Below are positions 13,212 to 63,793 of a stretch of 64,000 bases of DNA, in pieces. Within the stretch, counting starts at the first letter, position 1. Every line of letters starts with the position of its first letter. The position numbers and the translations under genes are program-made. Source of the stretch: Promethearchaeati archaeon (GTDB taxonomy: Archaea > Asgardarchaeota > Heimdallarchaeia > Heimdallarchaeales > Heimdallarchaeaceae); NCBI GenBank assembly GCA_013166775.1, contig JABLTJ010000004.1, forward strand, positions 96,001 through 160,000, given 5' to 3'. The notes beneath the pieces are model-generated. The model did not search any database and was not told the origin of the DNA. It was given only the letters and a program-made list of their open reading frames with translations.

Positions 13212-13798
13212 GTAGTCTGCCCCCTCTGCTTCTTGCGGTACTTAATGAAATCTATAATTCCAGAACCAAGATTCTCAAAAACTTCTTGAACATTTTCTCC
13301 AGTTCTTGCAGAAGTTTCATAGTATTTAACTTTGAATCCTTTAGATTTGTATTTCTTATTTAAATCTTGAACGTATGCTAATGCTTTTTCTTTTACATTT
13401 ACTCGTTTTGTTTTAGAAAGAAGGTCCATTTTGTTACCTAAAACATAGAATGGAACAATACCTCTTTCTGTACCTATTTCTAATTCTTTCACCCATCTAT
13501 CTAAAGTTTTTAGTGTAGAAATTTTCGTAGCGTCAAAAACCATTAATGCACCTAAAGTTCCCCTATAATACAACATACGAACTTTCTCGAAAATTTCTTG
13601 ACCAGCAATGTCCCAGATTTGAAATAAAACTGAATAATCGTAAATTTCTTTTGGTAAAGAAGCAAAATCAGCTCCAATTGTTTCAAGATGTTTTGTGATA
13701 AAACCTTCCCCCAAATACGAACGTCTTAGACTTGTTTTTCCAACCGCTGCTTCTCCTGCTAAGATGACCTTTAAAAATAGTTTTTGACCATAGCTCAC
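13208..13798 (-). CDS. Rab-like small GTPase
   Basis: GEAAVGKT, TIGADF, WDIAGQE, GNKMD, ETSAR; polybasic C-terminus without Cys. Confidence 0.93.
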   Translation of the reverse strand: MSYGQKLFLKVILAGEAAVGKTSLRRSYLGEGFITKHLETIGADFASLPKEIYDYSVLFQIWDIAGQEIFEKVRMLYYRGTLGALMVFDATKISTLKTLDRWVKELEIGTERGIVPFYVLGNKMDLLSKTKRVNVKEKALAYVQDLNKKYKSKGFKVKYYETSARTGENVQEVFENLGSGIIDFIKYRKKQRGQTT

Positions 13799-51432: not shown

Positions 51433-52413
51433 TCATATCGGAAGATTATTCAGAAACTCTATTCTCTTCTTCTGGATCTCATCTTTGTTTTCTCCTACCC
51501 ACATGAAATGTCCCCCATGAACTTCAAAGAGTTCAGCATGTGCAATGTTTTCTGTTAGGTATTCTGCGTGGTGCCACTTCACGTCATTATCCATTCTGCT
51601 GTATATCAACAATGTAGGAAAGGATATCTGATCAACTGGAATTATATCGATTTTCTCCATCAATCTCACATCGTGTATTAATCCCTTCTTCCTATGGCTT
51701 AGTGGCAAGGTGGTATTGGTTAAATCCCGTACCCACTTCTTTCTGACCTCATCATTCGATACTAATTTCACAAAATCATCCAGTTCACTTTCCTCATACA
51801 ATGTTTCAAGTTTAAGAACAGCTTTGAAACTGGCAGCAAAACTGATTTTCATGAAAACCGCAGTTAACCAACCCGTTAAGTCATCTAATCCTCTCATAAA
51901 AAACAGTCGTGCCCACCCATCCAGCATTCCCTCAGTACTATATTCTGATGCTACTCCAGCCTCCATTATTAGTCCATTTACCCTTTCTGGATACTTATTG
52001 GCGAGGAAAAGAGCAACTGGTCCTCCTGCAGAGGCTCCAACAACCACTACTTTTTCGATATTTAGACTATCCATCAGAGCTACACAAAGGTCAGCCTGTT
52101 CTTCATAGGAGAGAGGATTGAAAGGAGTTCCAAGATATCCCGTCCTGGAGGGTGCCAAGATGGAATAGCCTTGTTTTATTAGATATTCAAGCAGGAATCC
52201 CTGATCATAGCCACCAGGACCGCCATGTAGCACCAAGATTGTTGGACCTTTTCCTGCAAGCTTGTATTCTATCTTACCAAGCTTGGTTTCTGCTACGATC
52301 CCATCTTTCAATGTTGCCAATAATCCATTTTTCCAAGCGTAATAACGGAAGATAATAACAATTAACAAGATGAAAATGATTCCAAGAGTGATTAGTAAGA
52401 CAGTTGATACCAT
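51433..52413 (-). CDS. membrane-anchored alpha/beta hydrolase
   Basis: N-terminal TM, HGGPGG, GASAGG nucleophile elbow, C-terminal GGH. Confidence 0.9.
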   Translation of the reverse strand: MVSTVLLITLGIIFILLIVIIFRYYAWKNGLLATLKDGIVAETKLGKIEYKLAGKGPTILVLHGGPGGYDQGFLLEYLIKQGYSILAPSRTGYLGTPFNPLSYEEQADLCVALMDSLNIEKVVVVGASAGGPVALFLANKYPERVNGLIMEAGVASEYSTEGMLDGWARLFFMRGLDDLTGWLTAVFMKISFAASFKAVLKLETLYEESELDDFVKLVSNDEVRKKWVRDLTNTTLPLSHRKKGLIHDVRLMEKIDIIPVDQISFPTLLIYSRMDNDVKWHHAEYLTENIAHAELFEVHGGHFMWVGENKDEIQKKRIEFLNNLPI

Positions 52414-53661: not shown

Positions 53662-54051
53662 ATGGTGAAAACAATGACAGATGTTCAAGAACTTGAAGCT
53701 GTAAAGAGAATTATTATGGATCATTATCATGAAGGTCATGCAAAACATGATTACAAGTATTATGAAGGAGCTTTGCATAAAGAATGGAAATTTTTCTTGC
53801 TAACTCCAGAGGGAAAACTAGCGATTATTGATAAGGAGAAATATTATGCTTGGTATGATCCTAAGGATTATGATGAAAATTTACATTGGGAAACTGAAAT
53901 CTACAATGTAGATATAACAGGTAATGTAGGATCAGCTAAAATTCGACTAGAGTGTGAGAGAGTACAGTACATAGATTACTTCAATCTGATGAAAATTGAA
54001 GGAAAATGGTGGATAGTCCACAAAATTTCTCATGGAAACAAAAAAGAATAA
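53662..54051 (+). CDS. NTF2-like (putative lumazine-binding) protein
   Basis: Y.EG, VDITGNVGSAK and YIDYFNLMKIEGKWWIVHK motifs. Confidence 0.85.
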   Translation: MVKTMTDVQELEAVKRIIMDHYHEGHAKHDYKYYEGALHKEWKFFLLTPEGKLAIIDKEKYYAWYDPKDYDENLHWETEIYNVDITGNVGSAKIRLECERVQYIDYFNLMKIEGKWWIVHKISHGNKKE

Positions 54052-54286: not shown

Positions 54287-55174
54287 TTATACTAGAGTTG
54301 AAATCATATCTCCAATATAATTGAAAAGAGTTGAATAATGGCCCTCATTTGGATAAAATACTGCATTACAATGAGGGATTGCTTCTGCAAGCTGTCTTCC
54401 AATGCATACAGGAATAAGAGGGTCTAACTCTCCATGCCACACATATATACCTACATTCTTTGGAATTTCTTCTAAATCAAAACCCCAGTGTGTAATGTAT
54501 AATGATCCTTCATCACATACACCCTTTATTCCAAGTGTAAATGCTTCCTTTATCTGGTTCCACATGATATCTAGGATTTCTTCATTTTTGAAAAACTCTA
54601 GATCCTGTTTAGTTAGGATTTTTTCAAATCTGGAATACATTTTTGCCTTTGATCTTTCTTGATTCTTGGAATTAAATGGACGTGCAAAAAAGAACCATAG
54701 AACAATTTTAACTAACCATTTCATTCTTCTTCCAGTAGTTAACAAAAACTTCACATAAGGTGGTACATGGTCTTTGCACATATAAAAAGGACCCAATCCT
54801 GAAACAATTCCCACAGATTTAACACGGTCAGGAATCTTGTATGCACATGCTAAAGCTGAAGCGGCACCTCCTGAAACACCCATAATTGAAAATCTATTCA
54901 AATCCAAATAATCTGCAAGTTCAGCAACATCATCTGGCCATTCTAACAGTTTCCTATTCTTTTTTCGATCGGATAAACCTATACCAGGGCGGTTTACAGA
55001 GATTATTCTAGCATTTGCAATTGGTATCAGAACTTCACCAAATTTGGCTTCAAAGCAAGATCCGGGCCAACCATGAAAATGAAATAATGGTTTAGCTTTT
55101 GGGTTACCTAGTTCAGTATAACATAATGTTCGCCCATCTTGTAATTTGAAGAATCGCATAATACTCTGATCCAT
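54287..55174 (-). CDS. alpha/beta hydrolase
   Basis: FHGWPGS, RPGIGLS, GVSGG, WHGELD and EGH motifs. Confidence 0.92.
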   Translation of the reverse strand: MDQSIMRFFKLQDGRTLCYTELGNPKAKPLFHFHGWPGSCFEAKFGEVLIPIANARIISVNRPGIGLSDRKKNRKLLEWPDDVAELADYLDLNRFSIMGVSGGAASALACAYKIPDRVKSVGIVSGLGPFYMCKDHVPPYVKFLLTTGRRMKWLVKIVLWFFFARPFNSKNQERSKAKMYSRFEKILTKQDLEFFKNEEILDIMWNQIKEAFTLGIKGVCDEGSLYITHWGFDLEEIPKNVGIYVWHGELDPLIPVCIGRQLAEAIPHCNAVFYPNEGHYSTLFNYIGDMISTLV

Positions 55175-56870: not shown

Positions 56871-57641
56871 ATGCCTTTCGTAGACAACAATGGGATTAAA
56901 CTACATTATCAAGTTGAAGGCGAAGGTTCTCCCATAGTTTTACAGCACGGTTTCATGGATTCCATGGATGAATGGTACAGACCAGGATATGTAGATTCAT
57001 TAAAGCAAGAATATCAGCTCATTCTAATAGATCTAAGAGGTCATGGATTAAGTGATAAGCCACACAAAATAGAATCTTACACTCTGAAAATAATAGCTTC
57101 AGACGTCATTGCAGTCATGAATGATTTAAAGATAAATAAAGCACATTTCTGGGGATATTCGATGGGAGGAAATGTTGGGATGGGATTAACAAAATTTTAC
57201 GCAGATAGATTTCTCTCTTTTATTCTGGGGGGAATAACTCCTCAGAGAGTAGATAAGGAAATGGAAGTAAGAGTGAAAAGATATTTAAAGAAGCTCCAAG
57301 GCGGAGCTGAAGCCTTTTTTTCGGGCTTTAGAGATATTGGTATGGAAATAACAAAAGAAATAGAAGAGATTTTCACAAGCTTTGACTATGAAGCTCTCGC
57401 TGCTTTCTGGTGTGGAGATATATTCTATGATAGTGTTGAGAGTCTTCAACAGTTAAAAGTACCTTGTCAATTATATGTGGGAGAAGAAGATGAATGGGGG
57501 CATTATCCAAGAGCAAAAGAAGCTGCTCGGATAATTCCAAATATTGAAGTTGTAACATTTATAGATCAAGGACATGGAGTCCATGAACAAAAGGAATTAG
57601 TTCTTCCAGAAATACTGAAATTCCTTGATAGCATGAAATAA
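56871..57641 (+). CDS. alpha/beta hydrolase
   Basis: HGF, DLRGHGLSDKP, GYSMGG, GEED and GH motifs. Confidence 0.92.
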   Translation: MPFVDNNGIKLHYQVEGEGSPIVLQHGFMDSMDEWYRPGYVDSLKQEYQLILIDLRGHGLSDKPHKIESYTLKIIASDVIAVMNDLKINKAHFWGYSMGGNVGMGLTKFYADRFLSFILGGITPQRVDKEMEVRVKRYLKKLQGGAEAFFSGFRDIGMEITKEIEEIFTSFDYEALAAFWCGDIFYDSVESLQQLKVPCQLYVGEEDEWGHYPRAKEAARIIPNIEVVTFIDQGHGVHEQKELVLPEILKFLDSMK

Positions 57642-57676: not shown

Positions 57677-58252
57677 CTATTGTTTCTCTAAAAGAATTTC
57701 CTCCATTACTTCAAAGATAGAATCTTCATAAATAGATGTTCCATAGATTTTCACACTTTCTAGTGTATCGAGGTAAAAGATTTCCGAAATTCGTTTGATT
57801 TTTTCCTCTCTTTCCTCTTCTGGAATTAAATCCATTTTATGTACCAGAACTGTAATAGTTGCTCCCATACATATTTTTTCTACACTTTTTAGTGCTAAAG
57901 CAAAATACTCTCGAGCTTGATAATATTCTTCGAATCTTTCTACATCAACAACGTAGAAGAGATAATTTAAATTTGTAAAGATTGTTTCTTCAAGAATATC
58001 GAAAATTTCTTCTAGATAGGCAATCTGTCCCCCAACATCTACTACATAATAATTGAACCCTTTTAGTTGACTATGTTCTCTTGTGTAACGAACTGTAGAA
58101 GGCAAATCTATAGTTTCTTCAGGTTTCATACCCTTAAACACGACTTGTATAATAGAAGTTTTACCTGTATGAGCTAATCCGGTTAAGAGGACCTTATTAC
58201 CAATATCCTCTTCATTTACTTCATCTTTTTTCTCTTGGATTATAAAACTCAT
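57677..58252 (-). CDS. Rag/Gtr1-like small GTPase (G domain only)
   Basis: KVLLTGLAHTGKTSI..VVF, DVGGQ, HKMD (His at G4 is Rag-typical) and TSIYE. Confidence 0.85.
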   Translation of the reverse strand: MSFIIQEKKDEVNEEDIGNKVLLTGLAHTGKTSIIQVVFKGMKPEETIDLPSTVRYTREHSQLKGFNYYVVDVGGQIAYLEEIFDILEETIFTNLNYLFYVVDVERFEEYYQAREYFALALKSVEKICMGATITVLVHKMDLIPEEEREEKIKRISEIFYLDTLESVKIYGTSIYEDSIFEVMEEILLEKQ

Positions 58253-58361
58253 AAAGACAATATGGATTATAATCAATAAAATCTTTTCTACTCACCTGTT
58301 AGTTTAATTGAAATCAATTAATTGTGACATATATTGAAAAGAAGAGAAAAATTTCTATAAT

Positions 58362-61300
58362 TTAATTTGTTTCTTCGATTGCTGCTAGAATTACATGAGT
58401 AGCTCGTCTACGGATTTTCAATATTTGTTCTTTAATCTCGTCAGCAGATTTCTTTACCTCTAAACTAGAGATTAATTCATCTATTTCTTGAAAGATGTAT
58501 TCACTGTAAGTTAAGAGAAGAGTCCCATAATCAGCTTGAGTTATTATAATAATAGAAAGATTCTCAAATCCACCTCTAGCTTTTTTATTCTCAAGCTGAA
58601 TAGCATGTACAAAGCCAACTAGACCTTCATTTGGAAGATTAAGTGCACTAGTTTTTCTTCCTTGATGAATATCTTCAAAACCAAGTGTAGAATAAGCTTG
58701 ATCACATAGCTTTAATAGAAAATTTTCCGTTTCTAAGGCGAATCTACCTGCATAATCATAACTAAATGAATGGTCACTTAAAAGAGGAACGGGGCCTGTT
58801 CTTTGATTAAAAATACTAAGGATAACTCCCGGACAAATTTCATTTAGTTTCATCATTAAATCTTGTGAGGGTATTTTATTGAGATATTTTTCAAATGGTT
58901 TCCTTTTAGTTGAGAAGTAAATAAGCAAAGATACTAGTACAAGTAGAAATATACTCCCACCTATAATAGAATAAAGAAAAACAGGTGATAATCCTGCTTT
59001 GATTGTTTTCACTTCCTCCTCAAAATCAAAGGAGACAAATCCTAAGATATCAGATCCTTGAAAAGATGCTGAGATTGCTATAGATGAAACGTTTTCAGTT
59101 AAGAGAAAGTCTACAATAGCTCTCCCATCTGAACCTGTAGTATCATTAAGCATAGTATAATCATTAAAGTCTTCTCTGGCTGCTTCTACTGTTGATTGAT
59201 CTGATTTGTAGAAAATATATATGATAAAATTTATTTCATAGCCAACAACAGGAGAGCCATCTATGTAAGTGAGAATACCTGTAATGGCAACTGTACTTCC
59301 TTCGACTATTTCCAAATTTGAAACTGATAATGCTAATTTCAGAGGAATAGGTTCGATAGTAATTTCAAATGATAAATTTTCGTTTGTGCTTCCGAAGTAA
59401 AAATCAGATTGAACACCTATTTGTAAAGTAAAATGACCTTTGCAATTTACTTGACTTGATGGAAAATCAAATTGATAATCATAATCAGCAATGTTTCTAA
59501 AACTCATTGAAGTACCATTGACTGAAATTTCAATTATGTTTAAATCATTCATCGATTCATCCTTCAGATTTACATCGATTGTTATATTCTCACCATAAAC
59601 ACATGAATTTTCGCTTGTTTTTAATATTGTTAGACTGCCTTCTTTCTTAATGGTAAAAGAAAATACAACCTCAATCTCATTTGGAGATGTTTCTTCTCCT
59701 GTACAATCTCGTAAGATGATTGTAAGATTATGTAATCCAATTTGTGCTGGAGATTCTATTAACCAAGGATCATTCAAAATCTGTCCATTCTCATCATTCC
59801 AGTAGTAGATAAATATGGATAAATCGCTGCTAGTTGTATTATCGTACCAAAGCTCTGTGCTAATAGTGATATAGTCATAATCCAAAGCATCAACATACTC
59901 TCCTAAATCTTCATCAAAGATATAAAGAGTTGAATCAGGAGGAGTAAAGTCTACTTCAAAGTTAAAGAAATAAGTATTATTGTTACCTACTACATCTTCA
60001 GTATAAATTGCTAAAGTAGCAATATCTCCTGTAGAATAAGGCGCTAAAAGGATTACATCGAAATCACCATTACTATCAAGAATAATTTCAAGTGAGGTCT
60101 CAGGACGAGCATCCCAGTAATATTTAACAAGATCAATAGATTTTTGTGATATATCATCAGCATTGAAAAGAAGACTTGTATAATCATTGATTGATGAATA
60201 CTCAAATGGAAAGGTTAGAGTAATTTCTGGAGCTTGACTATCTATTGTAAGTATATAACTCAATTCAAGTTGATTACCAATAGAATCACTCCCGTTTATA
60301 ATTAATAGACCTTCTCCATCACTATAATCTAAATTAATAGTATCAGTAAAGATTTGATAGAGAGAACCATCCCATGAATAAGTTAAGATGAAAATAGGAT
60401 CATCATCTGTTGCAGAGATCACAATAGTAGAACCATAAGGGACATACATGCTAGCATCAGGTAAAGTAACTAAGCCCTCAATACTCTCAACTATAATTAC
60501 TGGAGCAGAAGAATCAATATAGAATTCAATAAACTGAGATACACTATTACCTGCAATGTCAAAGACGTAAAGAGTAAAATTATGTAAACCATCTAAAAAT
60601 GGTGATAAATCTAAAAGGTAAGGATCATTCAAAGTAATATTAGAAGATCCATCAATGGAAATAAGAACAATTAATTCTGGGATTTCTGTAGCGTTATCAC
60701 TCAAAATAAAGATAAGATCTTCTGTATTTTTAAAACGTTCATTATTATAAATTAAAATACTGGAATCAATGACAGGATTTTCTGTATCAATTCTGAATTC
60801 ATAAACAAACATGTGTTCTTTATTATCTATATCACCTACTAAGATAGTGAGGTAATGATAGAAAGAAATATCTGAGGGGAGAGTGTGTATTCCATCAAGT
60901 GTAAGAATCTGACTAACAAGAAAGGGAATACCATCATTAAAAATTCCATCATCCCATTTGAAGAGAACAGTACCATTGGTTCCACTTATTGTTACTTCAA
61001 CAATATCTCCTCCTTGATACCAGGATTCATCTTGCATTGTCCTTAATTCTACTAAAAGAGTTTCACTACTTACATTGAATCTAAACATTTGTAAAATGAA
61101 ATGTCCAAAAATATCCTCTGCAGTAACTGTGAGATTGTTGAACCCTTCTGTTTCTGGTAAGTATGTTTGATATATTGTGTCAACACTCGGAGTCCATGGT
61201 AAAAAGATGTTATCATTCCATTTATAATTGATTTCCAAATTTGTTGAGAAGTCTGTAATAATCACTTCAATTAATTTTCCAGCAGCTTGTTTCGTATCAT

Positions 61301-62717
61301 TGGCTACATTATGAAGAGAAATCAAAGGAGAATTAGCATCAATTCCAAAATAGTAGTAATAGTACTCAATTTTGAATGTATCATTTAAACAAATAGATAG
61401 ATTGTGATATCCTTCATCTATGGGAACAGAGAGATTATGACCTGACAGAGTAAGTAACTCTATTAAGGTCCCATTATCATCCCATTCGCATAAAATACTA
61501 TTAGCTCCAAATGCAGTAAAATCTAAAATTGAAGCAGAATGTAAGAACGTATTATTATCTGCATTGTTTAGTATTAGAGAACTTTCTGTGGGGTCATAAC
61601 CAATGTCATATACTTCAATAGCTGTATTATTATAATCATCATTTGCTCTCACCTCAAGATAGTGCCATCCTTCTGTGGTTGGTAAGTCTGTATTAGTTTC
61701 AGATGTAAAACTCGTATAATTATCTAAATTCCATCTGTAAGAACTAGATACAGCTCCAGTTACAGAGATTTGAATGTTTTTTTCTTCATAGTAATAAGTT
61801 GAATTTGTAATACCAGTTACTATAATTTCAGGATAAGTCGCACTTTTAAAATAAATCTGCATCCCTAGAATTTCGTTATATCCTCCAAAAGTGTAACTAT
61901 TACTATATTCTCCATCACTTATGACCCAATCATAAGTTCCAGCACCTTTACGTGAGGAACTGAGCTGTACCTCACCCTGAGCATCTATATCATTAACTTT
62001 GGCTTGAAAAGTTAATTTTAGTCTATTACCAGCAGGAATAATATAAATATCATTTAGTATTAACTCAAACACTTTCTGATTAGCAGAATTCATATTATCT
62101 GGGAGAATTTCTTCGTGAGAAGCTATTTCTGTAATATTTCCATTACTAGGATCAAAAATTGATACATTCACTTTAAGAATGATTGTAATAGAATCAAAAT
62201 AGGAAGTATCAAAATGGGATACAACATGAATTTTACCTTTAATATTTGTAGCTTCTTCAAAAGCAGGAGTAAACATACTTGATATTGTATATGGAGAATT
62301 TTCTTCTTTTAGTGGATAATAAACATCAACTTGATCTGGCCAGGTCTGACTCACTGTGTAATCCATTTTGAAGTATTTAGAGGTTGCAGAAGAAGCTTTA
62401 TTTTTCATATCATCATAATCTTTTAAAACATAAACACTTCCATCAGCATCAAGACTAATAAATTCGTTATGGGTAAAAAAACCTCCTTTTACATAGTCTC
62501 CTTCAATAATAGTACTTGATAATACCTCTGGAGGTTTTTTTTCAAACCCATATTTTATTAATGGAGTTTCACCTATAAAATTCTGCGAATCGAGTTCTAC
62601 TTCTTTCTTCAAGTTCGATTCTTCTAAATCTGGTATAACCAGTTCATAGTAGACCATTGAATTGATAAAGAATAAAATACACACAAACGCAATAATAGAG
62701 TTGAGATTCCTTTGCAC
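58362..62717 (-). CDS. large single-pass surface protein with Ig-like repeats and cytoplasmic longin/uDENN (folliculin-like) domain
   Basis: Signal peptide; repeated Y.WD...G.H.L.I...D..GN...F.ID...P units; TM near 58915-58985; tail with SIFNQRTGP and KARGGFENLSIII. Confidence 0.8.
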   Translation of the reverse strand: MQRNLNSIIAFVCILFFINSMVYYELVIPDLEESNLKKEVELDSQNFIGETPLIKYGFEKKPPEVLSSTIIEGDYVKGGFFTHNEFISLDADGSVYVLKDYDDMKNKASSATSKYFKMDYTVSQTWPDQVDVYYPLKEENSPYTISSMFTPAFEEATNIKGKIHVVSHFDTSYFDSITIILKVNVSIFDPSNGNITEIASHEEILPDNMNSANQKVFELILNDIYIIPAGNRLKLTFQAKVNDIDAQGEVQLSSSRKGAGTYDWVISDGEYSNSYTFGGYNEILGMQIYFKSATYPEIIVTGITNSTYYYEEKNIQISVTGAVSSSYRWNLDNYTSFTSETNTDLPTTEGWHYLEVRANDDYNNTAIEVYDIGYDPTESSLILNNADNNTFLHSASILDFTAFGANSILCEWDDNGTLIELLTLSGHNLSVPIDEGYHNLSICLNDTFKIEYYYYYFGIDANSPLISLHNVANDTKQAAGKLIEVIITDFSTNLEINYKWNDNIFLPWTPSVDTIYQTYLPETEGFNNLTVTAEDIFGHFILQMFRFNVSSETLLVELRTMQDESWYQGGDIVEVTISGTNGTVLFKWDDGIFNDGIPFLVSQILTLDGIHTLPSDISFYHYLTILVGDIDNKEHMFVYEFRIDTENPVIDSSILIYNNERFKNTEDLIFILSDNATEIPELIVLISIDGSSNITLNDPYLLDLSPFLDGLHNFTLYVFDIAGNSVSQFIEFYIDSSAPVIIVESIEGLVTLPDASMYVPYGSTIVISATDDDPIFILTYSWDGSLYQIFTDTINLDYSDGEGLLIINGSDSIGNQLELSYILTIDSQAPEITLTFPFEYSSINDYTSLLFNADDISQKSIDLVKYYWDARPETSLEIILDSNGDFDVILLAPYSTGDIATLAIYTEDVVGNNNTYFFNFEVDFTPPDSTLYIFDEDLGEYVDALDYDYITISTELWYDNTTSSDLSIFIYYWNDENGQILNDPWLIESPAQIGLHNLTIILRDCTGEETSPNEIEVVFSFTIKKEGSLTILKTSENSCVYGENITIDVNLKDESMNDLNIIEISVNGTSMSFRNIADYDYQFDFPSSQVNCKGHFTLQIGVQSDFYFGSTNENLSFEITIEPIPLKLALSVSNLEIVEGSTVAITGILTYIDGSPVVGYEINFIIYIFYKSDQSTVEAAREDFNDYTMLNDTTGSDGRAIVDFLLTENVSSIAISASFQGSDILGFVSFDFEEEVKTIKAGLSPVFLYSIIGGSIFLLVLVSLLIYFSTKRKPFEKYLNKIPSQDLMMKLNEICPGVILSIFNQRTGPVPLLSDHSFSYDYAGRFALETENFLLKLCDQAYSTLGFEDIHQGRKTSALNLPNEGLVGFVHAIQLENKKARGGFENLSIIIITQADYGTLLLTYSEYIFQEIDELISSLEVKKSADEIKEQILKIRRRATHVILAAIEETN

Positions 62718-62940
62718 GATAGCATCATCCGGATAGTGAGTGAACCCTTTGTTATTGAATCTAATTCAAGTGTTCGACATAATGAACACCCCATTATACA
62801 TTATAAACCATAGTAAATATGCAAGCATATAACTTTACATTTAATTCTTAAGCCTTATCTGAAAGAAATAGAAGAATCCTGAGCAAATTAAATTTTGAAA
62901 AAGAAGTGATGATTTACTTTCAATTCTACATTGTACAATC

Positions 62941-63693
62941 TTACAATTTATTAAACTCAATAGAATTTACTTTAAATCGCACATATTGAAAATCTTCTTG
63001 AGGAAGATTCCATTCTGCGATGAAATAGGTAGGAATTCTAAATCCATCGAAATCTTTGTAATCAGAAAAGTTACCAGTCCACTTAGTTGGTTTTGGTCCC
63101 TCTTTAGTATCTCGAGCTCTAGTGGATTCATACTTGATAATTTCCCCAAGATTATTGAAAGTAAAAACACCTTCAGCTTTGACTCCCCTATCTCGTATAT
63201 TTATCTTTACAGAGGAAGAATCGATTTCTTCCCACGAAATGAATTTTGCAGTCAAAAAAACACTCGGAAATAATGGTGCTTCTGAAACGTATCTCATTAA
63301 TGAAGCTTCATCCATCTCTGGTCCTACACTCTTTCCTAAAGGAATAATTCCATTGAGTCTAATCTTCATTTCTCCTTTTCCTCGAAAATAGAAATCTCTA
63401 GCAGATATGGCTAAAATTGGAAGTGGTTTAATTATTCCTCTCCAAATGAAAGCAGGTTCATAAGCTAAGTAGTGATATTCACCTTTAATAGAGAACCATG
63501 GTTGATCAGGAGATGTTCTGAATTCCCCACCATGTTTGAGATTAGCATAATAGATTGCTTCCCTACCTTCTTCTAAAGAATTTCTAAGATAATATTGAAC
63601 TATTTTAGGATAATTAGATAAATCCCTTAGAGAGAGTACAATCTTTTCTTTTTGTGAATCTAATGCTGCTTGTTGAAGTATTACATTTTTCAT
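62941..63693 (-). CDS. DUF6544-like conserved protein
   Basis: LP..VQ.Y-like start, P.FIW, RD.Y..GKG.M, RY.SE...P, WE.ID, GF.IP and W.L motifs. Confidence 0.7.
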   Translation of the reverse strand: MKNVILQQAALDSQKEKIVLSLRDLSNYPKIVQYYLRNSLEEGREAIYYANLKHGGEFRTSPDQPWFSIKGEYHYLAYEPAFIWRGIIKPLPILAISARDFYFRGKGEMKIRLNGIIPLGKSVGPEMDEASLMRYVSEAPLFPSVFLTAKFISWEEIDSSSVKINIRDRGVKAEGVFTFNNLGEIIKYESTRARDTKEGPKPTKWTGNFSDYKDFDGFRIPTYFIAEWNLPQEDFQYVRFKVNSIEFNKL

Positions 63694-63793
63694 TAAATTA
63701 AATTAAAGTATAGTATTGAAAAATTTTTTTCAAATCATCAGTTTTATATATAGAACAAATTTCGTAAAAATAAGCTTAGGAGCAAAGACAAAA

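Follow-up and report, generated by a model that had tools for sequence, protein, structure and literature searches.

A 64,000-nt stretch of the genome of a Promethearchaeati archaeon (Asgard archaea, Heimdallarchaeaceae; contig JABLTJ010000004.1, positions 96,001 to 160,000), which we call the window, encodes on its reverse strand a single-pass surface protein of 1451 residues, referred to below as the receptor. Its cytoplasmic tail is a longin domain that carries a signature motif and a candidate arginine finger of GTPase-activating proteins (GAPs) of the folliculin (FLCN) type, and the next gene downstream encodes a small GTPase of the Rag family. In our view, the best explanation of the data as a whole is that the membrane-tethered longin domain acts as a receptor-controlled GAP for Rag GTPases, with the neighbouring GTPase as its likeliest client; we put the probability of this proposal at about 0.5. 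The window corresponds to contig C2 of the source genome (3.85 Mb, 115 contigs, 89% complete, about 32% G+C). Among public sequencing runs, the stretch was found in three runs of marine-sediment DNA from one study, and no RNA run was listed.

The cytoplasmic tail has the fold and the GP motif of GAP-type longins and a candidate arginine finger

The receptor gene (labelled BIG; 58362..62717, reverse strand) begins with a GTG codon and ends with a stop codon at 58362-58364, and two full-length homologues (P0004 and P0006) have 1452 residues. The last 183 residues of the protein (residues 1269-1451; 58365..58913, reverse strand) follow the only transmembrane helix and form the cytoplasmic tail. 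An AlphaFold2 (AF2) model of this tail, with a pLDDT of 92 and a pTM of 0.88, showed the order of elements of longins, bb-a-bbb-aa (b, strand; a, helix). Over the whole tail, a helix precedes the bb-a-bbb core and three helices follow it. In tail numbering, the strands span residues 30-37 and 41-49, then, after a helix at 63-78, residues 89-94, 99-109, and 117-127, and further helices come after these.

When this model was compared with known structures using Foldseek, the top match was a Lokiarchaeal longin (2e-6), followed by FLCN in its active GAP complex (PDB 8dhb, 1.9e-4), GATOR1 (2.1e-4), Lst4, FNIP2, and C9orf72/SMCR8. VIA-align gave Z scores of 13.4 for the Lokiarchaeal longin, 12.2 for Lst4, 11.7/11.5 for FLCN, and 11.5 for C9orf72, while generic longins such as Ykt6 reached 9.6 or less. 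A shape search of the ESM Atlas returned first a Heimdall cluster carrying Pfam Folliculin, and then clusters of SMCR8, of C9orf72, and of the uDENN of FLCN/SMCR8 type, with TM-scores of 0.62-0.67. A feature search of the same atlas gave values of 0.75-0.79, which are below the meaningful level, and the archaeal cluster carrying NPR2 that was among its matches is a mere lead. We conclude that the tail is very probably a homologue of the GAP-type longins (the FLCN/SMCR8/NPRL2 class), the assignment already made in an earlier reading of the window from its letters and open reading frames (the sequence-only reading).

A full HMMER scan of 1.84 billion representative sequences yielded 75 clusters of tail homologues. 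The domain was located at the extreme C-terminus in every one of 67 homologues, in host proteins of up to 4835 residues, and a transmembrane helix directly preceded it in 40 of the 43 distant family members. Across 68 aligned tails, F36, Q38, G41, P44, R114, and R169 (tail numbering) were invariant and A113, G115, G116, E118, and N119 nearly so, resulting in the motifs F-[DN]-Q-x-x-G-P-x-P and A-R-G-G-x-E-N. The first of these comprises a Gly-Pro pair (GP motif), G41-P42 of the tail, which corresponds to G1308-P1309 of the receptor (58791..58796, reverse strand) and opens the strand at 41-49; the Gly is invariant, and most of the 68 sequences also have the Pro. The second comprises R114, i.e., R1381 of the receptor, which the AF2 model places in the loop connecting strand 4 to strand 5 and which was found in 68/68 tails. 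The two stretches singled out in the sequence-only reading, ILSIFNQRTGP and LENKKARGGFENLSIII, are indeed present, and the codon of the arginine is found, as claimed, at 58575..58577 (reverse strand).

A GP motif that closes the loop preceding strand 2 or opens strand 2, beside the arginine finger, has been described in FLCN, NPRL2, SMCR8, and C9orf72, and not in FNIP2, NPRL3, or other longins (PMC12290439). The position of the GP pair in the receptor tail agrees with this published definition. R1381 also lies inside the stretch matched by Pfam Folliculin (PF11704; tail residues 102-164 aligned to profile positions 49-109). From its position in the loop and from this matched stretch, we infer that R1381 is equivalent to R164 of FLCN, and we consider it to be a candidate arginine finger. 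Folliculin was the only Pfam family that recurred in the receptor family (25 of 68 members, below threshold, with a best E value of 1.9e-4). When the same profile was run across the whole source genome, nothing significant was found (best E value 0.137, located elsewhere). As this search misses the tails, the Pfam signal is a weak one, visible only protein by protein. The sole other match of our tail profile in the source genome, a weak one, is the N-terminal part (residues 15-118, E value 2.9e-4) of a 412-residue open reading frame (ORF; G000:C87:14693-15931:+), which may encode a soluble folliculin-like longin protein.

The receptor is a single-pass protein with a large all-beta ectodomain

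Hydropathy analysis revealed exactly two hydrophobic segments in the receptor, residues 4-29 and 1246-1268. The former lies within the N-terminal segment (residues 1-29; 62631..62717, reverse strand; Kyte-Doolittle 19-mer maximum of 2.04). The latter is the sole transmembrane helix (58914..58982, reverse strand; hydropathy maximum of 2.5) and is directly followed by STKRKP, in agreement with the positive-inside rule. The presence of only two hydrophobic segments, together with STKRKP, indicates a type-I topology in which the last 183 residues are cytoplasmic.

The ectodomain (residues 30-1245; 58983..62630, reverse strand) comprises about 1215 residues and is all-beta. It was modelled with AF2 over residues 40-1239 from a 22-sequence alignment, as about 12 tandem beta-sandwich modules of the immunoglobulin (Ig)-like type (mean pLDDT of 85), and the Foldseek matches of the model were tandem Ig/fibronectin type III-like chains, i.e., GhpA, contactin, DSCAM, titin, and an archaeal surface-layer (S-layer) protein. 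It contains 26 N-x-S/T sequons, compared with 14.4 +/- 3.2 in shuffled sequences, and is weakly matched by Pfam Big_13 and Big_7; an NCBIfam scan of the receptor and of the tail returned no family. The receptor is a type-I surface protein that is probably N-glycosylated. The sequence-only reading was right on the size of the protein, its Ig-like ectodomain, its single transmembrane helix, and its short cytoplasmic domain, which it put at about 160 residues rather than 183. As to the signal peptide that it proposed, the N-terminal hydrophobic segment is there, and may be either a signal peptide or a signal anchor.

The neighbouring gene encodes a Rag-type GTPase made of a G domain only

The gene that follows the receptor (57677..58252, reverse strand) encodes a GTPase of probably 191 residues. 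It matched Pfam Gtr1_RagA with 121.9 bits (cut-off 22; E value 3.5e-35) and Arf with 36 bits (6.4e-9), and its best solved relatives in the PDB were Gtr1, RagA, RagC, and RagD (about 1e-17). The GTPase motifs, namely GxxxxGKTS (G1), the switch-I Thr, DVGGQ, the Rag-type HKMD (G4), and TSI, were kept across 44 sequences, with G1, the switch-I Thr, and DxxGQ being invariant among the aligned GTPases. The reading frame is open up to 58276 (57677-58276, 199 residues). Forty homologues, one close member of which carries the NCBI label Candidatus Heimdallarchaeota, have 180-206 residues and a start Met matching residue 9 of the ORF. Because the close ones have 190-191 residues and begin with MSF or MSY, translation probably starts at the ATG at 58252, which leaves an intergenic gap of 109 nt (58253..58361, reverse strand). 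The Rag-type nature of the neighbour was thus confirmed, and its probable distance agrees with the sequence-only reading, which placed it about 110 bp downstream on the same strand.

The match to Gtr1_RagA covers residues 28-193 of the 199-residue ORF, and the C-terminal roadblock domain is absent. Since this domain mediates the formation of Rag heterodimers, a canonical Rag heterodimer is not expected. A prediction of the complex, made with the alignments of the tail and of the GTPase and with GTP and Mg, gave ipSAE values of 0.01 and 0.06, for a mark of 0.32, and speaks neither for nor against binding.

Receptor and Rag genes are linked across the family

We surveyed the linkage in the source genome and in 64 further loci from relatives, calling receptors and Rag genes in each. 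The source genome contains five receptor genes of the family (one each on C2 and C62, two on C97, and one on C47 that is cut); four of its five strong Rag genes adjoin one of them. In families f1, f7, and f32, a Rag gene was directly adjacent at 35 of 51 receptor loci, in six different arrangements; seven of the other 16 loci are truncated where their contig stops. The dominant cassette (29 loci) consists of one to three tandem receptors, a Rag gene of 550-690 residues, and a convergent Rag gene of about 409 residues. At six loci (the window, C47, L041, L043, L063, and L068), a short Rag (180-199 residues) is separated from a receptor gene by 4-156 nt and lies downstream, upstream, divergent, or convergent. 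All four receptor genes of another genome (G032) adjoin Rag genes, which represent four of its six Rag genes. In still another (G396), four Rag genes (C4:36991, 45468, 49588, and 51262) are found within about 15 kb around one receptor of 2321 residues (L038, G396:C4, 29000-47000). Among distant members (23-31% tail identity), Rag genes were adjacent in two of the three sampled, one of them with a long/short Rag pair. As the genomes are kin, these loci should not be counted as independent events; the diversity of their arrangements argues for repeated juxtaposition of receptor and Rag genes. On a distant metagenomic contig, a tubulin-family gene (PF00091, 444 residues; L113:9939-11273:-) adjoins a Rag pair and a receptor of 2004 residues.

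In another Asgard family (f20), 36 of the 41 genomes encode a protein that the receptor-tail profile also matched; it has about 475 residues (470-487; loci L117-L146, e.g., L118:69-1481:+). This protein begins with a longin, continues with a G domain of the Gtr1/RagA type (82-93 bits), and ends with a segment of about 80 residues. Its longin was matched by the tail profile with E values of 1e-9 to 1e-14 and has kept the GP motif (25/25) and the ARG (27/27), and one f20 protein, with 25.1 bits, exceeds the Pfam Folliculin cut-off. With the linkage counts and these longin-Rag fusions, the tie between longin-tailed receptors and Rag genes that had been read from the window holds at the level of the family, and it is likely that the receptor family works with Rag-family GTPases.

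Other genes in the window

Upstream of the receptor lies a DUF6544/DUF6920 gene (62941-63693, reverse strand). Three alpha/beta-hydrolase genes (51433-52413 and 54287-55174 on the reverse strand, 56871-57641 on the forward strand) flank the pair, and a lumazine-binding-like gene (53662-54051, forward strand) is found nearby. A further small GTPase is encoded at 13310-13771 (reverse strand) in a 200-residue frame; its match with Gtr1_RagA is weak (36.7 bits), and on this basis it probably belongs to another small-GTPase family.

Proposed mechanism and observations that weigh against it

According to our proposal, the tail would bind GTPases of the Rag family on the cytoplasmic side of the cell membrane and would speed their hydrolysis of GTP by means of the invariant R1381, which would lie beside the GP motif. 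In the source genome, the likeliest client would be the G-domain-only Rag of 191 residues encoded 109 nt downstream. Events outside the cell, such as ligand binding, adhesion, or clustering, would control the tail, possibly by bringing two tails together into a two-longin pocket, as in the eukaryotic GAP complexes. The narrower combination, in which the tail is an arginine-finger GAP and the neighbouring Rag is the client of this very receptor, has an even chance at best, or slightly less.

A number of observations, set out in this and the next paragraph, weigh against the proposal. The tail of this receptor scored 14.6-14.7 bits with Pfam Folliculin, for a cut-off of 23.3 (E value 0.03), and searches of the PDB sequences with phmmer and with the family profile gave chance-level matches and no FLCN chain. 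The longin is not followed by a DENN domain, the receptor ending about 60 helical residues past the longin core, and, unlike for FLCN/Lst7, a FNIP-like partner (a second, non-catalytic longin) was not identified at the window locus. Longin/roadblock dimers in general are mostly guanine-nucleotide exchange factors (GEFs) or platforms and only occasionally GAPs (PMC10933270). In family f5, an adjacent Rag was found in 0 of 20 loci, which have receptor arrays instead. In the spacer between receptor and GTPase, a T-rich run follows the stop codon of the receptor, and a TATA-like stretch rich in A/T lies about 25-38 nt upstream of the start codon of the GTPase; from its appearance, the spacer may contain a terminator as well as a promoter of the GTPase's own.

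The gene pair also differs in close relatives. The orthologous receptors of two sister genomes (G019 and G020) have ectodomains that are about 65-67% identical to that of the window (about 71% nucleotide identity across the receptor), and they share with it the upstream synteny, i.e., the DUF6544 gene in G020 and the gene beyond it in G019. Downstream, both have genes for two proteins with four transmembrane segments (4-TM) and not a GTPase. Conversely, next to the orthologues of the GTPase (85-92% identity), the receptor gene is missing and DUF6544 or the next gene is adjacent. In two of these loci (L106/L107), the sequence upstream of the GTPase runs straight into the homologue of window position 62944 onward, and in three others (L108-L110) into that of position 63723 onward. 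This continuity of the flanks indicates that the receptor alone (58293-62943) or the receptor plus DUF6544 (58293-63722) is an indel of 4.6-5.4 kb. Taken together, the sister loci and the indel indicate that the window pair is one of several variable arrangements and not a conserved operon, so that the conservation of the adjacency expected from the sequence-only reading fails in its own orthogroup.

Other data on these relatives are as follows. The 4-TM proteins that occupy the position of the GTPase are paralogous, have about 190 residues, and belong to no Pfam family (L055:2194-3422:-, L057:6975-8212:+). The genes of 190-196 residues downstream of the sister receptors were considered as possible degenerate GTPases and rejected, as they encode 4-TM proteins and have no similarity to the GTPase. 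Upstream of a third orthologue of the GTPase (P0082, 80% identity), at a distance of 640 nt, lies a gene of 1427 residues that may be a receptor gene; a gene for a small phosphatase stands between the two. A DNA search with the GTPase in 31 genomes of the family found only a 49%-identical paralogue in G019, which has no receptor in its vicinity, and, where a contig of G029 ends, a fragment of 84 nt. In a tree of the tails (FastTree, local support only), the window receptor groups with sequences that have no Rag neighbour.

The sequence-only reading had gone one step further and described the pair as a minimal prokaryotic counterpart of the Rag regulators upstream of mTORC1. This is an overreach, because the longin comes without a DENN domain or a known longin partner, the roadblock domain needed for dimerisation is missing from the GTPase, and a homologue of TOR kinase has been reported to be absent from Asgard archaea (10.1101/2020.10.19.343400).

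Alternative explanations

The alternative that survives best gives the tail the role of a docking platform at the membrane or of a GEF for Rag GTPases, not of a GAP, with the Arg and the GP motif used for binding or folding. There are models for this, since the longin/roadblock modules of Ragulator, Mon1-Ccz1, TRAPP, and DENN proteins recruit or activate a GTPase at a membrane, and the prevailing role of longin/roadblock dimers, mentioned above, points the same way. Furthermore, the linkage and fusion data fit any direct GTPase partner, and FNIP/Lst4 and C9orf72, which are not Arg-donating subunits, equal FLCN in the fold-search scores. The motifs argue otherwise. The combination of GP with an Arg in the loop has been reported to be specific to the GAP-type longins and to be absent from FNIP2, NPRL3, adaptins, TRAPP, and DENND proteins (PMC12290439), and in our sequences the Arg is invariant, in all 68 tails as well as in all 27 longin-Rag fusions. 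The f5 arrays are also informative in this respect. They contain three tandem receptors (L036, L086-L094; e.g., L036:7050-10040:-), the third of which (about 1000 residues) ends in a degenerate tail from which the GP motif and, in most cases, the Arg have disappeared. The loss of both together is the pattern expected of one functional site, and, by analogy, the degenerate tail is suggestively reminiscent of non-catalytic partners of the FNIP/NPRL3 type. We judge a platform or a GEF to be a rather unlikely, though serious, explanation.

A second alternative is that the adjacency seen in the window is incidental. The receptor would then sit in an indel-prone region, its tail would use other GTPases or none, and the 191-residue Rag would be unrelated. 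In favour of this are the exact correspondence of the receptor, with or without DUF6544, to an indel, the other genes found downstream of the receptors of the sister species, and a spacer that may carry its own terminator and promoter. Other clients are also at hand, such as the long Rag and the 409-residue Rag paired at the paralogous C97 locus, and the dominant cassette pairs receptors with Rags of this kind (550-690 and about 409 residues), not with short ones. Against chance speak the six separate loci, with four arrangements among them, at which a short Rag gene and a receptor gene are 4-156 nt apart, and the giant gene located 640 nt from another orthologue of the GTPase (P0082). With some 5 Rag genes in about 3.8 Mb of genome, we estimate the chance that a Rag gene is the immediate neighbour of a given gene at about 0.3%. 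An incidental neighbourhood appears improbable.

Least probable is that the receptor is mainly structural, as an adhesin or part of an S-layer-like sheath, with a longin tail that serves in sorting, anchoring, or cytoskeleton coupling and regulates no GTPase: the likeness of the ectodomain to adhesins and S-layer chains, its strong enrichment in sequons, the tandem arrays and presence/absence variants of the receptor genes, as often seen for surface proteins, and the role in sorting of the longin domains of SNAREs and of adaptor small subunits all suit such a role, which leaves the invariant GP/Arg, the recurrent Rag neighbours, and the longin-Rag fusions unexplained.

Significance

If the tethered longin does act as a GAP for Rag GTPases, the relationship between Rag proteins and folliculin would predate eukaryogenesis, and an archaeon would possess a receptor-coupled small-GTPase switch. 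The receptor family offers natural pairings: in many genomes a tail is encoded beside a Rag gene, and longins of this class are also fused to a Rag-type G domain. The window pair is the simplest version, a tail of 183 residues and a G domain of 191 residues, both expected to be easy to express. One may speculate that Heimdallarchaeia have true transmembrane receptors that directly control Rag GTPases via a tethered folliculin-type GAP, and that the FLCN/GATOR1-Rag axis descends from such a surface-receptor switch, the soluble lysosomal complexes being its later, internalised form; we consider this wider scenario tentative and rather doubtful.

Comparison with known systems

FLCN-FNIP (Lst7-Lst4) is the GAP complex for RagC/D (Gtr2) (PDB 8dhb, 6nzd, 6ulg, 4zy8). 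The receptor tail resembles the FLCN/Lst7 longin in its fold (Z scores of 11.5-12.2), in the GP motif at beta1/beta2, in the conserved Arg of the beta4-beta5 loop, in the repeated weak Pfam Folliculin matches over the stretch that contains this Arg, and in its linkage or fusion to Rag-family GTPases. It differs by the lack of a DENN domain, by an identity of about 15-17% and a score below the Pfam cut-off, by its tethering to the membrane behind an ectodomain of 1215 residues, and by a candidate client that is a Rag without a roadblock domain.

With NPRL2 (GATOR1) and SMCR8/C9orf72 (CSW), the tail shares the fold class (Z scores of 9-11.5) and the GP motif, and its R1381 is a candidate for their Arg finger. 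GATOR1 and CSW are large, soluble, multi-subunit lysosomal GAP complexes with two-longin pockets, and CSW acts on Arf, not on Rag. In contrast to the similarity in fold, no match between these proteins and the receptor tail was found at the sequence level. As for the GTPase, its G domain (122 bits with Gtr1_RagA) and its HKxD G4 motif are those of eukaryotic RagA/B, RagC/D, Gtr1, and Gtr2, from which it differs by its length of 191 residues and the lack of a C-terminal roadblock domain.

Folliculin-type longins of Asgard archaea have already been published. They are soluble Folliculin/SMCR8 longin proteins with a GP motif and an arginine finger, prominent in Heimdallarchaeia (PMC12290439, section 2.6), and that study, the text of which does not contain the words 'transmembrane' and 'membrane-anchored', leaves open whether their partners are ArfR or Rag GTPases. 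The window longin belongs to the same archaeal class and has the GP motif and a candidate arginine finger; unlike them, it forms the cytoplasmic end of a giant surface protein that crosses the membrane once, and its gene family shows conserved linkage to Rag. Asgard proteins that join an NPRL2-like longin to two-component domains, and longin-DENN proteins resembling FLCN, have also been described (10.1101/2020.10.19.343400), and our searches of the full-text literature found no receptor-tethered folliculin-type longin, nor its linkage to Rag. In a cultured Lokiarchaeon, the GTPase genes lie outside operons with longin or roadblock genes, so that partners cannot be read from the genome (PMC10933270). 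A longin-GTPase-roadblock architecture has been noted for Ca. Prometheoarchaeum MK-D1, without a connection to the folliculin signature or to receptor tails (PMC10933270). Such Asgard longin-GTPase(-roadblock) fusions are soluble single chains of about 475 residues, whereas the window has two genes and a membrane-tethered longin; what they have in common with it is an N-terminal longin that fits the tail profile, with the GP and ARG elements kept, and a G domain of the Gtr1/RagA type.

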